Part shown: piece by piece, positions 1-64,000 of the stretch | Layout: every line of letters starts with the position of its first letter | Numbering within the stretch: the stretch's first letter is position 1 | Origin: Octopus vulgaris | Lineage: Eukaryota | Direction of reading: 5' to 3' | NCBI GenBank assembly: GCA_951406725.2 | Contig: OX597827.1 | Span: 38,130,001 to 38,194,000, forward strand | DNA length: 64,000 bases | The notes under the pieces: model-generated | Databases searched by the model: none | Told to the model about the DNA's origin: nothing | The model's input: only the letters and a program-made list of their open reading frames with translations | Translations under genes and position numbers: made by a program

Positions 1-2211
1 GGGAGTTGAAATTGAAGAAGAAAGTAAGTTGAATTGGGAATTTAAATTGTAGAATCATAATGGTAATGGCGATTTTCAAGTTTTAGCATAAGAAGAAGAA
101 GAGGAGGAAAAAGACCGCCAATGGCTGAAAGATGGGAAGAGATGGGATTACGGCTTGAGGTAGCCTAAGGTTAAATTTTGTAGAGAGATAGGAAAGATAA
201 ATCAAGTTATGGCGAAGGCTTGAATGTAGCCTAAAAGGTTAAATTTTCGTAACAATGTATGAATAAACGTAGTAACAACGAATAAAAATAGTAAGATAAA
301 TTTTTAAGAACTTGCTGCGGACATCGATCGGGAGTTGAAATTGAAGAAGAAAGTAAGTTGAATTGGGAATTTAAATTGTAGAATCGTAATGGTAATGGCG
401 ATTTTCAAGTTTTAACATAAGAAGAAGAAGAGGAGGAAAAAGACCGCCAATGGCTGAAAGATGGGAAGAGATGGGATTACGGCTTGAGGTAGCCTAAGGT
501 TAAATTTTGTAGAGAGAGAGATAGGAAAGATAAATCAAGTTATGGCGAAGGCTTGAAAGTAGCCTAAAAGGTTAAATTTTCGTAACAATGTATGAATAAA
601 CGTAGTAACAACGAATAAAAATAGTAAGATAAATTTTTAAGAACTTGCTGCGGACATCGATCGGGAGTTGAAATTGAAGAAGAAAGTAAGTTGAATTGGG
701 AATTTAAATTGTAGAATCGTAATGGTAATGGCGATTTTCAAGTTTTAGCATAAGAAGAAGAAGAGGAGGAAAAAGACCGCCAATGGCTGAAAGATGGGAA
801 GAGATGGGATTACGGCTTGAGGTAGCCTAAGGTTAAATTTTGTAGAGAGAGAGATAGGAAAGATAAATCAAGTTATGGCGAAGGCTTGAAAGTCGCCTAA
901 AAGGTTAAATTTTCGTAACAATGTATGAATAAACGTAGTAACAACGAATAAAAATAGTAAGATAAATTTTTAAGAACTTGCTGCGGACATCGATCGGGAG
1001 TTGAAATTGAAGAAGAAAGTAAGTTGAATTGGGAATTTAAATTGTAGAATCGTAATGGTAATGGCGATTTTCAAGTTTTAGCATAAGAAGAAGAAGAGGA
1101 GGAAAAAGACCGCCAATGGCTGAAAGATGGGAAGAGATGGGATTACGGCTTGAGGTAGCCTGAGGTTAAATTTTGTAGAGAGAGAGATAGGAAAGATAAA
1201 TCAAGTTATGGCGAAGGCTTGAAAGTAGCCTAAAAGGTTAAATTTTCGTAACAATGTATGAATAAACGTAGTAACAACGAATAAAAATAGTAAGATAAAT
1301 TTTTAAGAACTTGCTGCGGACATCGATCGGGAGTTGAAATTGAAGAAGAAAGTAAGTTGAATTGGGAATTTAAATTGTAGAATCGTAATGGTAATGGCGA
1401 TTTTCAAGTTTTAGCATAAGAAGAAGAAGAGGAGGAAAAAGACTGCCAATGGCTGAAAGATGGGAAGAGATGGGATTACGGCTTGAGGTAGCCTAAGGTT
1501 AAATTTTGTAGAGAGAGAGATAGGAAAGATAAATCAAGTTATGGCGAAGGCTTGAAAGTAGCCTAAAAGGTTAAATTTTCGTAACAATGTATGAATAAAC
1601 GTAGTAACAACGAATAAAAATAGTAAGATAAATTTTTAAGAACTTGCTGCGGACATCGATCGGGAGTTGAAATTGAAGAAGAAAGTAAGTTGAATTGGGA
1701 ATTTAAATTGTAGAATCATAATGGTAATGGCGATTTTCAAGTTTTAGCATAAGAAGAAGAAGAGGAGGAAAAAGACCGCCAATGGCTGAAAGATGGGAAG
1801 AGATGGGATTACGGCTTGAGGTAGCCTAAGGTTAAATTTTGTAGAGAGAGAGATAGGAAAGATAAATCAAGTTATGGCGAAGGCTTGAAAGTAGCCTAAA
1901 AGGTTAAATTTTCGTAACAATGTATGAATAAACGTAGTAACAACGAATAAAAATAGTAAGATAAATTTTTAAGAACTTGCTGCGGACATCGATCGGGAGT
2001 TGAAATTGAAGAAGAAAGTAAGTTGAATTGGGAATTTAAATTGTAGAATCGTAATGGTAATGGCGATTTTCAAGTTTTAGCATAAGAAGAAGAAGAGGAG
2101 GAAAAAGACCGCCAATGGCTGAAAGATGGGAAGAGATGGGATTACGGCTTGAGGTAGCCTAAGGTTAAATTTTGTAGAGAGAGAGATAGGAAAGATAAAT
2201 CAAGTTATGGC
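1..2211. repeat. Tandem array of ~333-bp units (about 6.6 copies visible, continues past the left edge)
   Basis: Unit starts (gggagttgaaattgaag) at 1, 330, 663, 996, 1329, 1662, 1995; units nearly identical; the first is 329 bp because of a shorter (AG)n run; the last breaks off near 2211. Confidence 0.97.
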
Positions 2212-2797: not shown

Positions 2798-2852
2798 GAA
2801 CACAAGTGAAAGACTTGGTGGCCGACAAACAAACATTCAGGCTGAAATAAAT
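2798..2852 (+). CDS. RNASEH1: RNase H1-like protein, internal exon (NTSERLGGRQTNIQAEIN)
   Basis: tttacag acceptor and gtaagc donor; matches the RNase H1 motif RLPGRQTNQRAEI containing the catalytic Glu; upstream exons are outside the window. Confidence 0.85.
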
Positions 2853-3071
2853 GTAAGCCATTCTATTTAAGTTTTCAAGTGAAAGTAATGAGAGAATTAT
2901 TTGTTGGGAAGCTCCGCATTAATTGACACCTTGTGTGTGGTTTTGGGTGACTTCATCTGAAGGCACAAAAACTCTTCCCCTTCTTGCTATTGTAACTTCA
3001 ACCTTTATATTTAAGCATCTAGAGATGTTTTTGTTTAGTCTTTATCTAAAATGAAATTATTTTGTTTGCAG

Positions 3072-3156
3072 GCTGCCATTAGAGCTGTTGAACAAGCAAA
3101 GGCCAAAAATATTTCAAACCTTACTATCAACACTAGTAGTGAGTTCATAATGAACA
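3072..3156 (+). CDS. RNASEH1: RNase H1-like protein exon (AAIRAVEQAKAKNISNLTINTSSEFIMN)
   Basis: ttgcag/gtaagt; aligns without gaps to RNase H1 AACKAIEQAK...LYTDSMFTIN; TDS reads TSS. Confidence 0.87.
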
Positions 3157-3639
3157 GTAAGTTATGTTTGTTTCTCCTATGAATCAACTAATCCTTAACC
3201 TATTTAGTGTTTGTGGATGTTATTCCCTAACTTCTTTCATTTGGAACCCAAGTATTTTACTTCTATCAGTGAATGTCCAGAGGATCTCTTAGTGTTGTGT
3301 GTGACTGCATCCTATTGCAAAATTACTATATGTTAAGGTTGAAGAAGAAAATTGAGCGTGTTATTCACCTTTAGCAGCAGGGCTTTTTACAAGTAGTCTT
3401 CCAGGAACAAATTGGCAGGACTTACTACAGATGTTTATGTGTTTGTTGGTCAGCTTCATTGTAGCAAATAGCAGCTGGAGCTACACTTATCTTTGCTCTT
3501 CACAGAATATTTGTACAAGTAAGTCTGTTACAGGTAATATTTATGTGGAATACTTTTGTTTTTATTTTTCAGTTTGTTTATCAACTTCTCATTCATCATA
3601 ATATTGTTATTTCTGTTTGTATAGCTGTGCTTGGGAAGA

Positions 3640-3940
3640 CTCATTGAACCAAGTGACACCATAGTCACGACCATTGCCAGTGTCATGTGAATGGCACCTG
3701 TGAAATCGTAGTCATGGCTGTTACTGGTGTCATGTAAAAGGTGCCCATGCCAGTGGCACATAAAAAAGCACCCATTACACTTTCGGAGTGGTTGGTATTA
3801 GAAAGGGCATCCACCTGTAAAAACCATGCCAAATCAGACTGGAATCTGGTGCAGCTTTCCAGCATGCTACTTCCAGTCAAACCATCTAACCCATGCCAGC
3901 ATGGTAAACAGACATTAAATGATGATGATAATGATGATAG
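3640..3940 (+). mobile_element. RTE-LINE-related 3' end / non-autonomous element with (GAT)n tail
   Basis: gaaagggcatccacctgtaaaa...aacccatgccagcatgg...(gat)n motif shared with many copies in the window. Confidence 0.7.
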
Positions 3941-4775
3941 CCACACCCACATCTCTCATGTCACAGGCATTATTTTATTAACCATACATATCTTGGAACT
4001 ATTGGGTCATCCCATAAATAATGTGGTTTTTTTGTACTTCTTTTATTTTTCAAAATTAAGATAAACAAAATTATTTTCTAGTCTAAAATATACTCTCCTT
4101 CATTTTCTACAATGCTCTTCCATATATCTGGTAGACCTTCCCCTCTTCCAAAATTCACTTGTCTGTGATGAAAAATACTCCTCCAGTACAGTTCTGACCT
4201 CATCTGCAGAATTCCTATTTTTTAGCCCAAATAATTTTGAAGACTGTGTGTTACTGTCTTTTTGTGTTGACATGGTGTAATAGTTGTAAACAAATGTCAT
4301 TGCCATGCAAGCAGTGTCCTTTGTTTCTAATCTTCTATGGTCTTGAGGAAATATTACTTTACTTAGAAACAAAGTAAGGGTTGACAATAGGAAATGCATC
4401 TGGCTGTAGAAAATCTGCCTTAACAATTTCAGTCTGATCCATGCAAGTATGGAAAAATGGATGTTAAATTATGATGATGATGGTTTCTCTGGTGTTTGCT
4501 GTCATTATTGACTTCCATGATAATTACTTTGTGTATTTGTGCATCTTAATCATGAGAAAAGTGGGTCCTTAATCTGAGCATCAACACTTCAGAGCTTGCA
4601 ATAAATTTAAATTAAAAGGAACCAAGAGATTAACACAAATACTTGCAACAGAATAAGTTAGAGGCCATTAGTGACCAGAGGGTAGTGTTACGCTGGGTGG
4701 GATTTTAAATGTAACACCAACGAGTTAGGCCTAAGACAATAATGTTAAATCTGTTCCTTCTCTCCCTCACACCAG

Positions 4776-4900
4776 GTATGACTAAATGGTTGGAGGTTTG
4801 GAAAAAGAATAACTGGACGAGATCAGGTAGAAAGAAACTGATAAACAAAGAAGATCTGCAGAAATTGGATAAGAAATTGGAGGGAATCAATGTTAAATGG
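4776..4900 (+). CDS. RNASEH1: RNase H1-like protein exon (SMTKWLEVWKKNNW...INKEDLQKLDKKLEGINVKW)
   Basis: Polypyrimidine tract with accag, gtaagt donor; classic W..W...W basic-protrusion motif and N.ED; phase consistent with the previous exon. Confidence 0.92.
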
Positions 4901-7130
4901 GTAAGTTTAAGCAGGACGAACTGGGAAGCTAAAAGAAAACTCTATCATGACATCTAAACCAACTGAAGGATTTTATTCTGTGTGTGTGTGAGAGAGAGAG
5001 AGAAAACATGTTTGATTGTGTGCTTTGTTTTTTTTTTCCATTGTGGTCTAATTAGAAGAGGTTAAGATTACTTATCAAGGTTTGCAAAGATTTTGGTAAG
5101 AGATTAGAAAATCTGACTGTAATTTTGGAGGAGAAAAATTTTTCAGTCTGTGTGCTTTTTACCTTTCCTACTGATCATCTTGATGATATAATAGAAGTTG
5201 ATGATGGTATGAGAGGTTTCTTCCATATGTTGCAGACTGTTAGGTTTGGTTGTGTGAGCAGTGTGGAAGGATATATCTAGGAGAATGGTTTCAGTCCCAC
5301 ATTTAACTGTCTGATGAGTCAGAGGTGAAACATGTGTTGTGAAGGGTCATCAGTGTAGAACTGGTAGAGTGTCAACCAGTGAGTTGAGGTACCAGAGAAC
5401 TGGCAAGGGTTGTTGTGCTTTGATTAGCTGTAAGTTGGAGCATTCTGTGAGGTGCAACTGTAAAAATGTTGTTGTTTTAACCCTAATTGAACAGACTTAT
5501 GACCAAAGGTATTCTAGCCAAGGCCATGCATCTTTTCTGAAGTATGTCCTATTCCAAGACAGCAGGGTGTGATTTAAGAGAAATTTAGCTTTTTCTAGCA
5601 AGTTGTTACTACTTAGATGCTCTCTCCTCCCTTCTCTCTGATTATGAAGTAAAAGCTTTGAGGTAAGAAATAGATCAATAATTTTTTAATATTTAATTTT
5701 ATGGATTTGGGCAGGTGACAACACAAATTAGTGCAAAATTTAGGGATGGAAAACTGCTCATCCTCAACAGTAGCTGCATTGGTGTAGGAGGAGTGAGAGA
5801 GGAAAGAAATGTGATGAGAATAAGTACAAAGAAAGGTGAGGCAAGATGTCATCAGTGTAAAATAATTGGTAGTTGAACTACTGTTGATGTTGGAGAGGTT
5901 TGAAAAAAGTAGTGGCTATAAAGAAACTTAGCAGGGAGACTTAGAGCCACAGTAACTGGAAGTCTTTTTGCTTCCACTCTCTCCTCTTCTCATCTGGTTA
6001 TCAACCAAATAATACTTTTCAGTGTGTGAAGGTGGAATATAGAATGTAGTCTGAACAACAGATGAACTGGAAATAGATGAGAAATAGCTGGCACAGAAAA
6101 GAATAAAATTTGAATGAGGGAGGAGAAAAGCAAGTATGCATATGTACACCCCTGCCACACACATCCTTAACTCTCTTAAGTTTGTTTCAACTACTGAATG
6201 AACTAGCACAAAGAATTACAAGGTTCCAGATGAACTAGTCTCATTGACAGATTGTCAAAGAACTCTAGAAGAATTAAATGTCATTTTAATCTCTGATTAA
6301 AAATTTTAGTAGATGCCTAGAAAATTTTTCATGTCTAAAAATGTTAGTAATAACTTTCTATTATTCAAAGAAACAAGAAACTTTTCTTTAATAACCAATT
6401 AAAATAGTCATAAACAGTTGTTATTATATATTGCCTAGCACTTAGAAGAAAGGGGTTTTAAAGAAAATAGTGTATTTGAATGGTTGTTTTTAATTTAAAA
6501 AAACACTATTTTATGAATGAATCAATGCTTAAAATTTTAGACATGAATTTGAAACAGAAAAGGCAAGATACCTACTTAACTCTTTTGAGAGAAATGTTAG
6601 TATAATTTGTAACTTGATTAACCAAGGAATGGTCAGTACTTAATAACAAACCAGTGGGACTGGTTTATTGTAATTAGAATTATTATTAAAAGAAAGAAAA
6701 GTGGTGGCCTTGTGCGAAAATTAGAAAGAATTATCAATATTAAGGTTCATAGAAATGAATTGTGTTCATGGCCCATGTAGGCCCTCTAAGAGTGGTTAAG
6801 TTGGCTGCTTCAAGTTGATTGCTACAGAAAGAACTAGGGCAGGAAGGGAATTCCAATGGGATGTTATTCAGGGAAGGGAGGGAGTTGGAAATGATTATTG
6901 TAGGCCTGGGAATACAATATGCATGTTTCAAATTGGTACTAATAATGTTTAGAGATTTTTAAAATTATTATTTTATTTAATTTTATAGTTTAATGAGAGT
7001 TTCTCTAATTTCTATTCTCAGTCTCCGCATAGGAGAATAAAAATAGATAGGCTGTGGATAGCCTCCTCCTCTTTACATCAACAAATAAATATAAAAATTA
7101 TTTTGATTGTATATTATTTCTATTTCCTAG

Positions 7131-7214
7131 GACCGTGCGGATAAATGTTGTGCTGAACACAAAGCTGCTAACATTTTGGCCAAAAAAGGAGCAAAACTTC
7201 CTCTACCTGAGTAG
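7131..7214 (+). CDS. RNASEH1: RNase H1-like protein, last coding exon (DRADKCCAEHKAANILAKKGAKLPLPE*)
   Basis: ttcctag acceptor, phase 0; AANILAKKGAK aligns to EADRLAREGAK; TAG at 7212-7214; AATAAA at 7249. Confidence 0.78.
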   Translation, partial: DRADKCCAEHKAANILAKKGAKLPLPE

Positions 7215-22645: not shown

Positions 22646-22864
22646 AGTTGACAAGAGTTGTTTTGGCATTTATACATTTAGGCAGGTTTAAAGGGGTGGT
22701 GGGTGGGGGACTTTTTGGGGGTAGGCATGGCGCAAAACTATCATTCTTAGGGGAGTGGTCAAAGGAATCGGTGGTAAAGTAGATAAAAGAATAAATAGAA
22801 AAATAGAGTTTTAGGTAAATAAGGAGACTCTCACTTATACATATACATATATACCCACATATTC

Positions 22865-22921
<57 letters not shown>

Positions 22922-23036
22922 CATACACACACATACATACATATATGCACACACATGTCCATATACACACACATATACACATATGTGTACATATACATAC
23001 ACATACACACATATGCATACACATACAAACCCATAC

Positions 23037-23097
<61 letters not shown>

Positions 23098-23956
23098 CAT
23101 ATGTATATACATATATATACACACACACACACACACATACATATACACACTCGCACATATATATACATACATACACATGCATATACATGCACACACATAC
23201 ACACACAATTTTATTCCCTTATTTTAATTTTATTATTACTTTTGTTATCTTATTTTTATCTTGACCTCAGTCAGCCATCCCGGGCTATTGTCCCAAAGGA
23301 TGGTCAAAGTCCATTTATCTTTCTACTAACTGATACGAACACAAACACTCACTCACGCACACACACTCACATGTACACTCATACACATACACACACGCAC
23401 GTGTTATATTCATACATACATACATCTACATACATTCACGTATATACACATACGTACGCGTACCTACAGATTCATATCTACACGCATACACATACATACC
23501 TCAATACACCCACAGAAGACTAGTCCATACATATACACTAATAAATATATATACACATATACATATACACATACATATATATATACATATATATACATAT
23601 ACACATATATACACATATACATACATATATACACATACACACATATATATATGCATACACATACACACACACACACACGCGCATCTATATATACACATAA
23701 GTACATACATGCATAAATGTATACATATGTTTATACATATGCATACACATACACACACACACGCGCCTCCTTATATTCATATACATACATGCATACTCAA
23801 ATAATAAATAAGTATATATACGTGCAGTTACCCATTATACAGACGGATACATACATATAAACTTACACATATATACCTATTTACACATATGTATATATAC
23901 ATACATACATACACACATAACTCTACATACCTACATATACATAAACACACAAGCGT

Positions 23957-23993
<37 letters not shown>

Positions 23994-24080
23994 TATACAT
24001 ATATACACACACATACACACATATATACACATACACACACATTCACATATATATATACACACACATTCACATATATATAT

Positions 24081-24121
<41 letters not shown>

Positions 24122-24442
24122 AGTACATACATGCATAAATGCATACATATGTCTATACAAGTGCAAACACATACACACACTCACGCGCCACCTTATATAC
24201 ATAAATACATACATGCATACAAACGCATACTCAAGTAATAAATAATAAATAATAAATATATATACATGCAGTTACCCTTTATACATACGGAAACATACAT
24301 ATAAACATACACATATATACCTATTTACACATATGTATATATACATACATACATGCACATACACATAACTCTACATACCTACATATACATAAACACACAA
24401 GCGTACACATATATATATATACATATATATACATACATACGC

Positions 24443-24473
<31 letters not shown>

Positions 24474-24492
24474 CATACACATACATACACAT

Positions 24493-24523
<31 letters not shown>

Positions 24524-24741
24524 CCACACACATACACATACACATACATATGTACATACACATACATATACACGCATTCGCATACATGCGTATATTCCTA
24601 CTAACACCCATACATTTCTATACATATATACAATACATATATACAAGTGTACACATACAATATGTGAATAGTCTTAGGAGAAAAGGTAATCGGGGGTGCT
24701 GGGGCAACGGTGGGGTTGGGGGGTTTGTGGGTGGGGTGTCG

Positions 24742-25489
24742 TCAATCGGGTTGCCGGGTGGGTCTATAGTTCTTGTAGTTTGCATAAATTTTATGCATGC
24801 AATTTGGGGAGTGTTCTGAGATCTTGTTGAGGAGAGGGCCTTTGGCGAACAAGATCTCTAGGCTCTCAGAAATGCAAAGGTCACAGCAGGTATGGCCTCC
24901 TGTGTACGAACGCGCCTTCTGTAGTAGTCTCCACTTGATCTTGAAGGGGATGGAGTTCCTTTTAAGGTACCAGATGTGGGCGGCGAGGGTAGTTTGGTTG
25001 GATTTATCGGGTCGCCGGAACGAGTGTGTGTGGGCGTACCAGCAGGTCTTAAAGCTGTTTGACGTCATTCCGATGTACGGTTTTCTTTTATCATCGGGGC
25101 CTGATCGTACCTCGCATGTATAGACGAGGTCCCTCTGTAGGCAGTTGTTGTTGAGGGGGCAAGTGGTTTTATCAGGGCAGTTGCAATTGCTATCGGATGT
25201 TGGATGGGCCTCGGAAAAAGTAGATATATTAAGTTTTTTCACGTTGTTGTTGGCTAGGTTCCTGGCTAGATTGGGCGTGGTAGAGTAGGAGAGTCTAATG
25301 GTGTTCTTATTTAGGATAGTATAGTACTTATGTTGGGTGGGGAAGTGTTTCTGTAGGAGAGTGAAGAAGATTTTAGCTACAGGTGTAGCGACCTCACGGT
25401 TGAAGGGGGGGTTGTACCAGCTAATGTGTCTTCGCCTATTTTTCCTGGGTTGGCGTGGGGCTATACTAGTATAGGTGATCTTACCTTTA
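24742..25489 (-). CDS. Penelope-like ORF remnant: post-RT linker, Cys motif and GIY-YIG endonuclease
   Basis: Open frame RRHISWYNPPF...HFP...IRLSYS...CNCPDKTTCPLNNNC...LVY...YIGMT...CDLCISE; truncated at the 5' end by the inversion. Confidence 0.85.
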
Positions 25490-25864
25490 AATGTGTATGC
25501 GTGTAGATATGAATCTGTAGGTACGCGTACGCATGTGCATATACGTGAATGTATGTATGTATGAATATAACACGTGCGTGTGTGTATGTGTATGAGTGTA
25601 CATGTGAGTGTGTGTGCGTGAGTGAGTGTTTGTGTTCGTATCAGTTAGTAGAAAGATAAATGGACTTTGACCATCCCTTGGGACAACAGCCCGGGATGGC
25701 TGACTGAGGTCAAGATAAAAATAAGATAAAAGTAATAATAAAATTAAAATAAGGGAATAAAATTGTGTGTGTATGTGTGTGCATGTATATGCATGTGTAT
25801 GTATGTATTTATATGTGCGAGTGTGTATATGTATGTGTGTGTGTGTGTATATATATGTATATAC

Positions 25865-25908
<44 letters not shown>

Positions 25909-26035
25909 GTATGGGTTTGTATGTGTATGCATATGTGTGTATGTGTGTGTATGTATGTATATGTACACATATGTGTATATGTGTGTGTATATGGACATGT
26001 GTGTGCATATATGTATGTATGTGTGTGTATGTCTG

Positions 26036-26106
<71 letters not shown>

Positions 26107-26330
26107 GAATATGTGGGTGTATATATATATGTATATGTATAAGTGAGAGTCTCCTTATTTACCTAAAACTCTATTTTTCTATTTATTCTTTTATCTACTT
26201 TACCACCGATTCCTTTGACCACTCCCCTAAGAATGATAGTTTTGCGCCATGCCTACCCCCAAAAAGTCCCCCACCACCACCCCTTTAAACCTGCCTAAAT
26301 GTATAAATGCCAAAACAACTCTTGTCAACT

Positions 26331-50790: not shown

Positions 50791-53103
50791 TGGAACGAAT
50801 TATTGTCTTCTTTTTCTTTTAATATTTAATGTGTATATCTGTATGCAAACAGACATGCATGCTTTCTGAAGAATTTGTTTCATTTAATATGAAACTTGAA
50901 GTCACGTGAAAAAAAAAATCAAGTAATACTTAACTACTTCATTATAATAAATATAACTCTGCGCGTCTTGGGTACTCATTTTTGTTCGTGAAATTACTTA
51001 CAACTTATTTTTAACATCTACGTACGTATGTATTTCTGACTTTTTGTGACTGTTTCGTTGGCACTACCATGGAATTAGCTGTCAGAAGGAAAGTTAAAAA
51101 AGAAGTGTGACGTCGTGCCGTTTCGTTTTATTTTGGTAAATTGCTTTAATTCTCGGTTTCGTTCAATAACTAAAAGTAGTATGTAATTAAAATGCCTCTT
51201 TCTATATACTATGAACCTATCGTCTACCAGTATGTATGATCCCTCCCCCAGAAACCTGGCAACTACGAAGTTAACATGAATGTTGGACGGGAAGAAAGCT
51301 CACTAAAGAATAGTGTGCTCCTATAAGGCACCCTAGATTCTAAAGTAATTATTATAAGTTTTGTTGATGTTTATACTCACCTGATTATGAATTTAATGGA
51401 CAATGTATTTTCATTGGGCCTATCTAATTAAGATCTAAACATAAAAGGATATACAAACTAAAAATGTGTGAACTAGCTAACAGCGAATGAAGTCTAGATT
51501 AGGATTCTGCAGTGCGAAAATTTTTACATCTGTTTAGTTGACTTTTGGGGGTTGAGAGTGGACACCAGTCCGCTACTCAATTTAGCACGCATTTTGCCAG
51601 TGAACGGGTCTTAATCGCAATCCATGGGTCCACTGTTGTTATAGTTGTGTAATATCTTTAGTCAGTATTTAAAACTAATCTTAAATAATTTACTTACATA
51701 AAAGGAAAGATCGCCAGTATCTGTGTTAAACCGAAACAAGTTAAAAAAGTTGATCCAATTAGCACTGTTGACTTCTTATTTTTGTGTTATTGTTTACACA
51801 AATACCGGCTTTTTACGCTCTACTTTCAAATTCTGTTGAGGTGAGTTTTAGTTATCAACCTCCGGGGTTGGTCGATGAAATAAGTACCGGCGAAGGTATC
51901 GATTAACCCCTTTTCCCTCAAAATTGCTAGCCTTGAACCTACATTTTGTATGTATATTACCGTTAATGTACAGAACGGTTTAGCCCCTGTCAAGGCATTC
52001 CATCTCGTCTTCAATTCGGTGTTTCTATGATTATATTACCTTGTGTAGCCTTCCTGTTTGAAGACAGTAGAGATATTATTTGACTGGTAACCGGACGAAT
52101 GAATCCTTGGCCTTGAGGAAAAAAATGTTTCCAGGTCTGTGAGTGGCAAAAATAAAATCTTGTCCCCCCCCCCCCATCCTTTCATTCTGTTGGGGGTGGG
52201 GTAATAAAAGACATTCTATGTGAACTGAGACTAAACAGCCACCAGGTTGAAACCCAAAGCACAAGTGTCAACATGAACTATTGTTTTTAAAATCTGATTG
52301 TCATACCAAGAATGTTTAGTTGATGACAATAGGCAATCAGTTACAGGCTGTCACCATCATCAATTTAGTTTTAAAGACCCACTCCAAATAACGTCTTTTG
52401 TATAAGCTAACAATATTCACTGTCAGTTGTCTTTATGAATTTTGCCCTTGTTAATTCTGATGTCTGTAATTCATTTAGCTATGTCATCTTACAAACAATG
52501 TTTTCAGTTATATTTGTTATAATTTAAATTTTTCCAGTGTCATTTAATTTTCTGTTATTTACTTAATCTTATATAGATCTGATATCATCAGCCTTTTATC
52601 ATTCTTTCAGGGTATATAGAACAAAAAGAATTTATAAATTCTTTCATTCTTGTGTGGTGAAATTATTTGAGCTTGGTTCTACAATTTGTGAACCTACTTG
52701 TTAGTTTCTACAACTCTCCTTATGTTCATTTTTAATGTTTTTCTGCTTCCAGATAAGGTTGGAAGAAAGGTGCATTGCTCCAATCACTACAAGAACAAGA
52801 TAAGAATTCTCAACTCTCTGGCCCCAAAAGTTGTCATTATCTGTCCACTGGATCATTGCAGCTTCCCTCAAACATGTTTATCCTTTGAAAGATACAGTAC
52901 AGCTTGTAGTATGCTGGTAAGAGCTAAGCAGTCTGAAAAGCACTTTAAAATAATTGCTTCCATATTATTAAGATCAATCTAAAATCTGGAGGCTGGGCCC
53001 ATCCTCTGAAACTTCATCATATCCTTTTTTTTTTGTCTTTACTGCATTTTGTTTTCAGGTTATTTCCTCTCTTTTTCTTCTTTTCTTCAATCATTCTTTA
53101 ACC

Positions 53104-53790
53104 ATGGAAAATCAGCAGTTTTCTTATGAGTTTTTGCAAAAGTTATTAAAATGTAAAGCGAAAATGCTCTCTGGTGGGAAAAAATTTACTTGTGAAACAT
53201 GCGGTAAAACATTTCCTGAGAATGTACAGCTTGTACGTCATGTACGGATTCATACGGGAGAAAGACCATATAAATGCGAACACTGTGACAAGACATTCAC
53301 TGAAAAGATTAACTTGACCAGACATATTTTTACACATACTGGAGAGAAGCCATACAATTGTGAGTATTGCGGAAAGGCATTTTCTCAACGTTTTACTCTA
53401 TCTAAGCACATTCTTACACACACTGGAGAAAAACCATACCACTGTGAATATTGTGGTAAAACATTTTCTCAAAGTTCTACCTTGTCTAAACACATCCTTA
53501 CACACACAGGGGAGAAGCCTTATCATTGTGAATACTGTGAAAAATCATTTTCGCAAAGTGGTCATCTTTCCCAACACAGACTCACTCACTTAAAACCAAA
53601 ATCTTATGACTGTGAACATTGTGACAAAAAGTTCTCAATGAATTCCACTTTAGTAATCCACAGGCGTTTGCACACAGGAGAACGGCCTTATAGTTGTGAC
53701 TGTTGTGAGAAAAGCTTTATGTCAAGCACTGCTCTCAAAATACACCAGAAGATCCACAAACCAAAGAAGCCTATAGAGAGTGAACATTGA
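53104..53790 (+). CDS. C2H2 zinc finger protein with 7 tandem fingers and no KRAB/BTB/ZAD domain
   Basis: Intact 228-aa ORF with accATGg Kozak context; seven CxxC-12-HxxxH units, mostly with TGE[KR]P linkers. Confidence 0.96.
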   Translation: MENQQFSYEFLQKLLKCKAKMLSGGKKFTCETCGKTFPENVQLVRHVRIHTGERPYKCEHCDKTFTEKINLTRHIFTHTGEKPYNCEYCGKAFSQRFTLSKHILTHTGEKPYHCEYCGKTFSQSSTLSKHILTHTGEKPYHCEYCEKSFSQSGHLSQHRLTHLKPKSYDCEHCDKKFSMNSTLVIHRRLHTGERPYSCDCCEKSFMSSTALKIHQKIHKPKKPIESEH

Positions 53791-62986: not shown

Positions 62987-63381
62987 GTGATAGAGGGATG
63001 TTAACATAAATTATAGCGACACAAGCACCGTCGGCTGGTAGACAAGAGACTTGAAGAGTTTAGAAAGTGACAGAAAAATAACAAAGCCAACAGAAAACAG
63101 TAGATTTCCATGTTTTCAGATTTTATGAGTGAATCACTTTGACAATGAGAAAGACAAATACAAAGATAATCGGGGGATATTAAAGAAAGAGGAGGAGAGG
63201 AAAACAGAAAATGCATATAAATAATGAAGAATGTGAATGAACGAAAGAAAGAAGGGAAATAGAAAAAGGGAGAAATAAAGAAAAGAAGGAATGTAATGAA
63301 AGGAAGAGAAAACGGAAGGCAGAATAAAAATAGAAATAATTAAAAAGGAAAAGTAAAAAAACTTGAAAACGTTTAACTTAC

Positions 63382-64000
63382 CATTGGGTTTGGAATGGAA
63401 GGAGTTGAGAATACAATAAGGGTACAGTTTATTGAATTCCCTGTCATCAGGTGACATGTGTAACTTTGTAGGGTGTTTAGAGAAATTCTTAAAGACTTCT
63501 GGAGTATCAAGTCCATTAAGTTGTACAGATGTTAGCTTTGTCTTAGTGTTGTCTTCATTTCTTAGATTGGATGACACGGCTATATTACTGAGTTCTGAGT
63601 TGTTAGTTCTTTCGACATACATTGCACTGTGATGAGATGATGATGATGATGGTACAGCTAGCAGAGGAGATTCTTTGTCACTTCGGTTACACGTTTCTGA
63701 CAACGGCAATGGAAGTTCACTGTCCAGTGACTTCCTTTGCAAATAATACTTGGCATTACCTCGACTATATGCTTGCGGCAACGCAGATGACGGTTCAGTG
63801 TTCTTAGACTTCCTTTGCCTGTGCTGCTTGACATTGACCACAGTTTGCATGTCTCTGCTGTTACCATATTTCTCTTTGCTTGAGTTGTCTTCAACTGCAC
63901 AGCTACCAGTCCATGATTGTATCGATGTTTCGGTTTGTTGTTGTTGCTGCTGCTGTTTGAACGGCACATATTGCCTTTTCTCTTTATCTTGTTGATACTG
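63382..64000 (-). CDS. Large exon of an unidentified low-complexity (polyQ, Ser-rich) protein, open to the window edge
   Basis: Frame open from 64000 to a gtaagt donor at 63381 (...FHSKPN G/); the ORF beyond the donor is pyrimidine-rich intron read-through. Confidence 0.7.

Follow-up and report, generated by a model that had tools for sequence, protein, structure and literature searches.

We analysed a 64,000-nucleotide (nt) stretch of Octopus vulgaris DNA, hereafter the window (assembly GCA_951406725.2, contig OX597827.1, here C14, positions 38,130,001 to 38,194,000, forward strand). Near its start lie four exons of a gene for a protein resembling ribonuclease H1 (RNase H1). RNASEH1 occurs on this contig as three copies in tandem, which we call A, B and C (Table 1), and the four exons make up exons 5-8 of the last one, copy C. 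Each exon is preceded by AG and the first three are followed by GT, and when joined they form a single open frame ending in TAG. These splice ends and the open frame agree with the initial annotation, made from the letters of the window, which had described four canonical, frame-preserving exons encoding the RNase H fold. The splicing of copy C was derived from the sequence and from the deposited gene model P0001 (CAI9732842.1, 'ribonuclease H1-like isoform X3 [Octopus vulgaris]'), which matches exon 7 at 100%.

Tandem arrangement of the RNASEH1 copies

Gene models of A, B and C were built from 354 kb of sequence. They share with eukaryotic RNase H1 (human 2QK9 and 6VRD; PF00075 plus PF01693) a hybrid-binding domain, a linker and an RNase H domain. 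All three copies have eight homologous exons, an own stop and an own AATAAA, and exons 4-8 of B and C contain neither a stop nor a frameshift. The closest relatives with an intact tetrad are copy A, which has the same eight-exon structure, and the Octopus bimaculoides protein XP_014778914.1. The initial annotation had proposed to look for the upstream exons and for a separate intact RNASEH1, and both were located: exons 1-4 of copy C, with the hybrid-binding domain and the substitution D145A, lie upstream of the window, and copy A, with a complete D-E-D-D tetrad plus His, lies ∼180 kb upstream of the window gene. Its suggestion that the window gene might be the degenerate second domain of a two-domain RNase H1 does not hold, since a full set of exons 1-8, a stop and an AATAAA are present in every copy. 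For the same reason, an own start exon included, we ruled out a dead domain fused in frame to an active one.

Table 1. Coordinates of the RNASEH1 copies and of associated features (C14, contig coordinates; all others, window coordinates)
Feature	Coordinates	Strand	Remarks
Copy A, intact	C14:37922196-37956785		FTDG, NNRAE, KTDS, HVDAH, AADKL
Copy B, dead	C14:37990837-38035312		D145A, D210S
Exon 1, copy C	C14:38064324-38076613		seven tandem copies; first ATG = AAG; W43R
Exon 2, copy C	C14:38100982-38101082		K60N
Exon 3 remnant, copy C	C14:38101512-38101791		acceptor deleted
Exon 4, copy C	C14:38103854-38103968		D145A
End of 333-bp repeat array	1..2211		whole array ∼25.5 kb, intron 4 of copy C only
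Exon 5, copy C	2798..2852	+	strand beta-3, start of helix A
Exon 6, copy C	3072..3156	+	helix A, beta-4; D210S at 3135-3137, GAT to AGT
Exon 7, copy C	4776..4900	+	basic protrusion, helix D, beta-5
Exon 8, copy C	7131..7214	+	His loop, D274N at 7170-7172, stop 7212-7214
AATAAA	7249..7254	+	35 nt past stop; same place in copies A, B and C

Genome searches placed the family at this locus. Exon 7, used as a DNA query, matched the genome at three places, all on C14; the hybrid-binding family PF01693 was likewise found three times, and the O. bimaculoides protein produced 23 exon matches across the genome, all within C14 37.92-38.14 Mb. The corresponding search for PF00075 missed the spliced locus and found eight matches elsewhere, each with the complete domain in a single frame. 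A retroelement origin of the RNase H domain was ruled out, as the gene is spliced, occurs at a single locus and adjoins a hybrid-binding exon. A tblastn search for alternative exons with intact motifs in copy C (four proteins against the 354 kb, ≥60% identity) returned only the three known exon sets.

We also compared the genomic copies with deposited proteins. The O. vulgaris model CAI9732839.1 (P0003) is a chimera of exons 1-5 of copy A and exons 6-8 of copy B. Among the O. vulgaris proteins returned none equals the intact genomic gene A, which is of practical concern for users of these models. The deposited proteins are simply named ribonuclease H1-like.

Catalytic residues and predicted fold

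Residues of the catalytic domain are given in human numbering, obtained by alignment to 2QK9 and anchored on D145; the numbering of the hybrid-binding domain is what we take to be homologous to the human protein. The tetrad D145-E186-D210-D274 reads A-E-S-N in copy C and A-E-S-D in copy B. Within the window the initial annotation had correctly recognised Ser in place of the Asp of TDS (human D210 position), Asn for the last Asp of EADRLA (AAC, human D274 position), a His loop reading DRADKCC, the motif NIQAE with the Glu retained (2844-2846) and the three Trp of the basic protrusion in exon 7. Its reference motifs needed correction, as the ancestral octopus forms are HVDAH and NNRAE, not HVPGH and NQRAE. 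Beyond these changes the first Asp is also lost in copy C, through D145A in exon 4, which lies 26 kb before the start of the window. Exon 5 keeps R179, T181, N182 and E186 and carries N183I, R184Q and Y188N, whereas exon 7 keeps W221, W225, W230, S233 and N240. In exon 8 H264 has become Cys (7146-7148) and an in-frame 6-nt deletion removes two residues of the His loop; copy B keeps the His in a shortened loop.

The E. coli enzyme with the change D134N keeps its activity, so that a change of the last Asp alone is a weak indication and D145A together with D210S carries the argument. By analogy with human mutants we infer that B and C lack nuclease activity. The initial proposal of a naturally dead RNase H1 paralog thus stands as far as the sequence can tell, with catalytic residues lost beside an intact gene. 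Cephalopods recode heavily by A-to-I editing. A rescue by such editing was ruled out, because an A-to-G change could restore D274 (AAC), not D145 (GCT), D210 (AGT) or H264 (TGT), and the substitution spectrum is not dominated by A-to-G (11 of 72).

How unusual are these losses? DEDD was present in 96 of the 112 fully aligned sequences (120 examined), and the other 16 were all from O. vulgaris or O. sinensis. Among 134 further representatives of 50% clusters, 110 showed DEDD, 12 were aligned over the first three columns (DED), six changed the last Asp alone, three were fully aligned and lacked the first or third Asp, and three aligned poorly. Sporadic cases of dead RNase H1-like proteins thus exist elsewhere. 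Three RNase H1-like proteins, P0147, P0184 and P0171, with the tetrads AEDH, NEDN and DEYD, are other candidate dead RNase H1s.

The two dead copies differ in their N-terminal half. In copy B the first ATG as well as W43, F58, K59 and K60 are intact. The hybrid-binding domain of copy C carries F28D, W43R, F58Y and K60N and is acidic (net charge -6); its exon 2 still matches PF01693 with 34.8 bits, and the domain is missing from the deposited model P0001. In the human hybrid-binding domain W43A abolishes heteroduplex binding, as described in PMC6846478. The mitochondrial ATG, intact in A and B, reads AAG in all seven exon-1 copies of C. Furthermore, a deletion of ∼1.2 kb in copy C removed the acceptor and the first 23 nt of the linker exon (exon 3). 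One candidate route to a protein would skip this symmetric exon in frame and yield 205 amino acids (aa). Other candidate routes are a weak in-frame AG at 38,101,470 and an ATG at the deletion junction, as in P0001.

Several comparisons point to a retained RNase H fold in the product of copy C. The annotated product matches Pfam RNase_H (PF00075) with E=1.6e-19 and 70.9 bits against a cut-off of 25.8, and its sequence matches human RNase H1 with E=1e-34. AlphaFold2 (60 sequences) predicted a confident RNase H fold with a mean predicted local distance difference test score of 87. Foldseek placed this prediction on 2QK9 with E=2e-16 and a root-mean-square deviation of 1.3 Å, although the alignment of active homologs used by the model favours that fold.

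Between A and C 48 of 153 residues differ, compared to 12 of 155 between copy A and O. bimaculoides. These changes fall in beta-1 (5/10), the following loop (3/7), the first half of helix A (3/7), helices B/C (7/18), the basic loop (9/13), the His loop (5/7) and helix E (6/15), whereas beta-3, beta-5, the loop preceding helix A and the second half of that helix are free of changes. In total 53 residues lie in unchanged runs of at least 8 (permutation p=5e-5). The net charge of the domain rose from +2 to +7. N151, R179, T181, N182, F213, W221, W225, S233 and N240 are kept in both B and C; selection of the DNA strand is ascribed to W221 and the phosphate pocket (PMC8960830). Judged from the known fold rather than from three-dimensional coordinates, the changed elements would line the substrate groove or binding face around the active site, with the scaffold spared.

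Excess of replacement changes in the dead copies

When A, B and C are compared over the 152 gap-free codons of the RNase H domain, 52 codons vary, and all 52 are replacements with no silent change among them. Pathway counts of replacement to silent changes were 46:2 for A/B, 55.5:2.5 for A/C and 34:0 for B/C (Fisher p=9e-4, 9e-5 and 3e-4, respectively), and the pairwise ratio of replacement to silent rates (dN/dS, omega) was ∼6.5 for A/B and A/C. Codons that differ by a single base gave 29:0, 39:0 and 22:0, which rejects an artefact of multi-base mutations. Likelihood ratio tests of codon models against omega=1 gave p=6e-8 to 8e-8 under two frequency models. In the neutral simulation we would expect ∼10 silent codons, and for A/C 0 of 20,000 runs had none. 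The introns around exons 4-8 differ from those of A at 142 of 5,368 sites for B and 144 of 5,365 sites for C (2.7%); this divergence predicts ∼10 replacements, compared to the 46-55 that were seen. The linker exon, our internal control, showed omega values of 0.7-1.0. For the hybrid-binding domain omega was 2-3, which is not significant internally, though copy C shows 14 replacements in this domain versus 3.6 expected from the introns (p=2e-5).

The RNase H domain of B and C has thus very probably evolved under positive selection. The initial annotation had expected the gene to be still under selection. The dead copies indeed evolved non-neutrally; the selection is positive, however, and not the conserving kind. 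Since selection on replacements needs translation, we infer that the proteins of the dead copies are or were translated.

That the locus decays neutrally, as a pseudogene or through errors in the assembly, is hardly credible. Copy C has lost an acceptor and its first ATG and has taken up a 25-kb repeat insertion, and some O. sinensis models depart from the shared frame near the C-terminus. Nevertheless, neutral evolution, which the initial annotation had named as fatal to its proposal, conflicts with the absence of silent changes in 52 changed codons; assembly errors would not avoid silent sites, and several identical substitutions recur in an independent species. We reject neutrality for the history of the domain, though copy C alone may be silent at present.

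The changes did not end with the loss of catalysis. D145A and D210S are common to B and C, and the two copies differ at 28 further residues, which implies that selection continued after catalysis was lost. A total of 24 replacements are common to B and C, and 10 columns differ in all three copies. With the outgroups, almost every change is assigned to the dead lineages; at columns 201 and 259 it is copy A that looks derived, and columns 166, 239 and 243 remain ambiguous. Between B and C the introns flanking exons 4-8 differ at 5 of 2,427 sites, compared to 35 of 321 for exons 4, 7 and 8 and no difference in exons 5 and 6. Conversion may thus homogenise the introns while selection preserves the exon differences. 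The silent sites of the linker (4/65) exceed the intron divergence (0.6%), which also points to intron homogenisation. We therefore discarded the B/C introns as a clock, and the claim of selection between B and C rests on the 34:0 count.

Other cephalopods add to this picture. In O. sinensis exons 4-7 of the intact type equal copy A at the protein level. Its dead models show D145A or D145Y, E186V, D210S or D210N and D274E in mosaic combinations, and D145Y, E186V, D210N and D274E are absent from B and C. Judging from the proteins, D145 was probably lost repeatedly, since the changes from GAT to TAT and from GAT to GCT follow separate single-base routes. Several of the substitutions of the O. 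vulgaris dead copies recur in O. sinensis, where proteins were found with a C-type exon 1 (0 differences), a C-type exon 3 (3) and a B-type exon 4 (2). The models P0005 and P0101 look like chimeras similar to CAI9732839.1. O. bimaculoides and Argonauta are represented by a single protein each, both with DEDD, and dead copies could still exist there; the RNase H domain of Argonauta differs from copy A at 22 of 155 residues. A protein tree groups the dead copies (100/99). Because of the exon mosaics in O. sinensis and because it is rooted at the midpoint only, this tree was not used for the order of events.

Possible roles of the non-cutting copies

We consider it about an even chance that this tandem duplicate of RNASEH1 is a non-cutting binder or decoy that was repeatedly retuned against a fast-evolving genetic parasite. 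The proposed steps are as follows. A duplicate beside the intact gene has lost three of the four catalytic acids and the loop His, as seen in copy C, and is predicted to keep the RNase H fold; an excess of replacements has rewritten what is likely the substrate face. The old substrate face of the non-cutting protein would be the target of selection, with the retuning driven by a parasite, most likely a retroelement or virus; the ligand is speculative. Such a dead binder could sit on an RNA:cDNA intermediate, or act as a decoy for a parasite factor aimed at RNase H1, and in this way restrict long interspersed nuclear elements (LINEs). Host genes in conflict with parasites typically show recurrent changes on one surface, renewed duplication and mosaics of exons, and on these grounds we favour a conflict mechanism with moderate confidence. 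More tentatively, the octopuses of the vulgaris group may possess a young, recombining family of RNase H1-derived restriction factors or decoys that recognises an RNA:DNA intermediate or a protein of a parasite through the old active-site groove and is engaged in an arms race. LINEs that lack an RNase H of their own depend on that of the host to complete their insertion (PMC6068448), which offers a route for restriction and is no evidence for the octopus locus itself.

Several observations speak against this interpretation. According to PMC6068448 the main helper of LINE-1 is RNase H2 and not H1, which gave partial rescue. If the ligand were bound irrespective of its sequence, as a generic hybrid would be, continual change should not be needed. 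The selection tests rest on three DNA sequences (A, B and C), too few for site models, and the maximum likelihood estimate of omega (∼30) is poorly bounded. A plain runs test for clustering of the changes was not significant (p=0.09). Seven of the nine contact residues described in PMC6846478 are unchanged between A and C, which is at chance level (p=0.43; 9/11, p=0.28), and conserved columns changed about as often as by chance, at 15 of 55 compared to 48 of 153 overall (conservation-weighted test p=0.12). Retained hybrid binding is thus unsupported by residue counts. Moreover, copy C may now be decaying, having lost the exon 3 acceptor and the mitochondrial ATG.

Independently of the other explanations, B and C could be two divergent alleles of a single dead gene that a haplotype mis-join in the assembly put side by side and that balancing selection maintains, which we regard as unlikely. 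The middle unit, copy B, is C-like in its 5' part (mostly 0.05-2.5% divergence), whereas its 3' part resembles the A unit (often 0.2-0.4%). This mosaic would be expected from unequal crossover, and a mis-join would look alike. However, the 5' junctions of the B and C units differ, and the B-type and C-type variants in O. sinensis predate the species split, although old shared alleles would fit the latter as well. The comparisons of A with the dead copies are unaffected in any case.

Unlikely as well is a one-off neofunctionalisation, in which the duplicate was selected into a new and fixed binding or scaffolding job, for instance in another tissue or with another nucleic acid or protein as partner, without an ongoing opponent. 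The 24 shared replacements would fit such an event. B and C also retain at most ∼100 nt of the sequence upstream of the first ATG of A, so their expression has probably changed. The fast change after the split of B and C (34:0), the other routes taken in O. sinensis and the 10 columns that changed more than once are not expected from a single shift.

Two further explanations seem to us improbable to a similar degree. The first, put forward in the initial annotation, is a conserved reader or protector of R-loops, a natural counterpart of the D210N reagent. The human D210N protein binds hybrids (PMC8266564), the octopus domain has become more basic, the nine residues from N151 to N240 are kept in both dead copies and copy B keeps the four intact hybrid-binding residues. 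A conserved reader should be under purifying selection, whereas dN is far above dS, and the O. sinensis copies change R179, T181 and N182. For copy C the suggestion is a poor fit given W43R, K60N, the acidic hybrid-binding domain and contacts kept at chance level. The role would suit copy B better and is plausible for that copy only. The second explanation is detoxification: a mis-expressed extra RNase H1 is harmful, and cutting, hybrid binding and mitochondrial import were removed stepwise from copies that are on their way out. The losses do match ancestral functions (the catalytic acids, W43, the mitochondrial ATG and the exon 3 acceptor), and the excess of replacements in the hybrid-binding domain of copy C agrees with this. 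Yet one stop, frameshift or deletion would suffice, and we see ∼50 replacements with none of these in exons 4-8; the dead gene also appears to have been duplicated again.

Returning to the conflict interpretation, we compared the octopus copies with known systems. Exuperantia, Maelstrom and plant decoy pseudokinases such as ZED1, examples of pseudo-nucleases and decoys under diversifying selection, are duplicates of host enzymes that lost catalysis and kept the fold, and decoys change fast at the old substrate face. To our knowledge none of these derives from RNase H1, as the octopus copies do. C. elegans has extra RNase H1 genes, among them the lineage-specific paralog rnh-1.3. An RNase H1-domain protein of this kind appears in gene lists for RNA silencing (PMC11092662), in passages that mention neither a loss of catalysis nor positive selection; it belongs to a separate lineage. 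The engineered D210N detector of R-loops likewise lacks a catalytic Asp and keeps the fold and several contacts to the DNA strand (PMC8266564). Unlike it, the octopus copies are natural, carry dozens more changes and, in copy C, are altered at W43, whose replacement by Ala removes binding in the human domain (PMC6846478). Our literature search, by title and abstract in a library short of most subscription papers, found no paper on duplicates of octopus or cephalopod RNase H1 or on inactive, positively selected paralogs. The copies are candidate pseudoenzymes derived from RNase H1, and their selection signal is exceptionally strong and open to test. In a housekeeping enzyme as conserved as RNase H1, a change of up to a third of the domain at an intron divergence of 2.7%, without any silent codon change, implies very strong selection at the protein level, so that a dead RNase H1 was doing something that mattered to selection. 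With three small proteins at one locus and the active control adjacent, the system is easy to test. If the conflict interpretation is true, it would reveal a new source of host defence genes and provide natural variants for re-aiming the RNase H groove.

We finally describe features surrounding the copies. The duplicated A unit ends at a point equivalent to window position ∼52943, just upstream of a C2H2 zinc-finger gene (window 52972-53790). Copy B lies behind a copy of the putative 5' exon of this gene and hence may be read from its promoter. The exon-1 unit of copy C (∼1.94 kb) was amplified seven times, and each exon 1 lies behind a CpG-rich dispersed repeat, a candidate new promoter (L032:5805-6228 and six more, C14:38063805-38076372). 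An 827-bp stretch of intron 7 (window 5320-6145) has the same orientation in A and C and the opposite one in copy B. The 333-bp array (∼C14:38106500-38132211) comprises ∼75 units, is purine-rich on the sense strand and is inserted in a (TA)n tract; its head is presumably derived from a short interspersed nuclear element. Arrays of the same unit occur on many contigs with 87-100% identity and often the same start position, and the repeat looks like a young mobile tandem-repeat element. On the reverse strand a 300-aa frame (window 24742-25644, within 22815-26162) lies between inverted simple-repeat blocks and resembles a Penelope-type GIY-YIG endonuclease. On the same strand a 606-aa open frame crosses the window end (window 63137-64000, C14:38193137-38194954).

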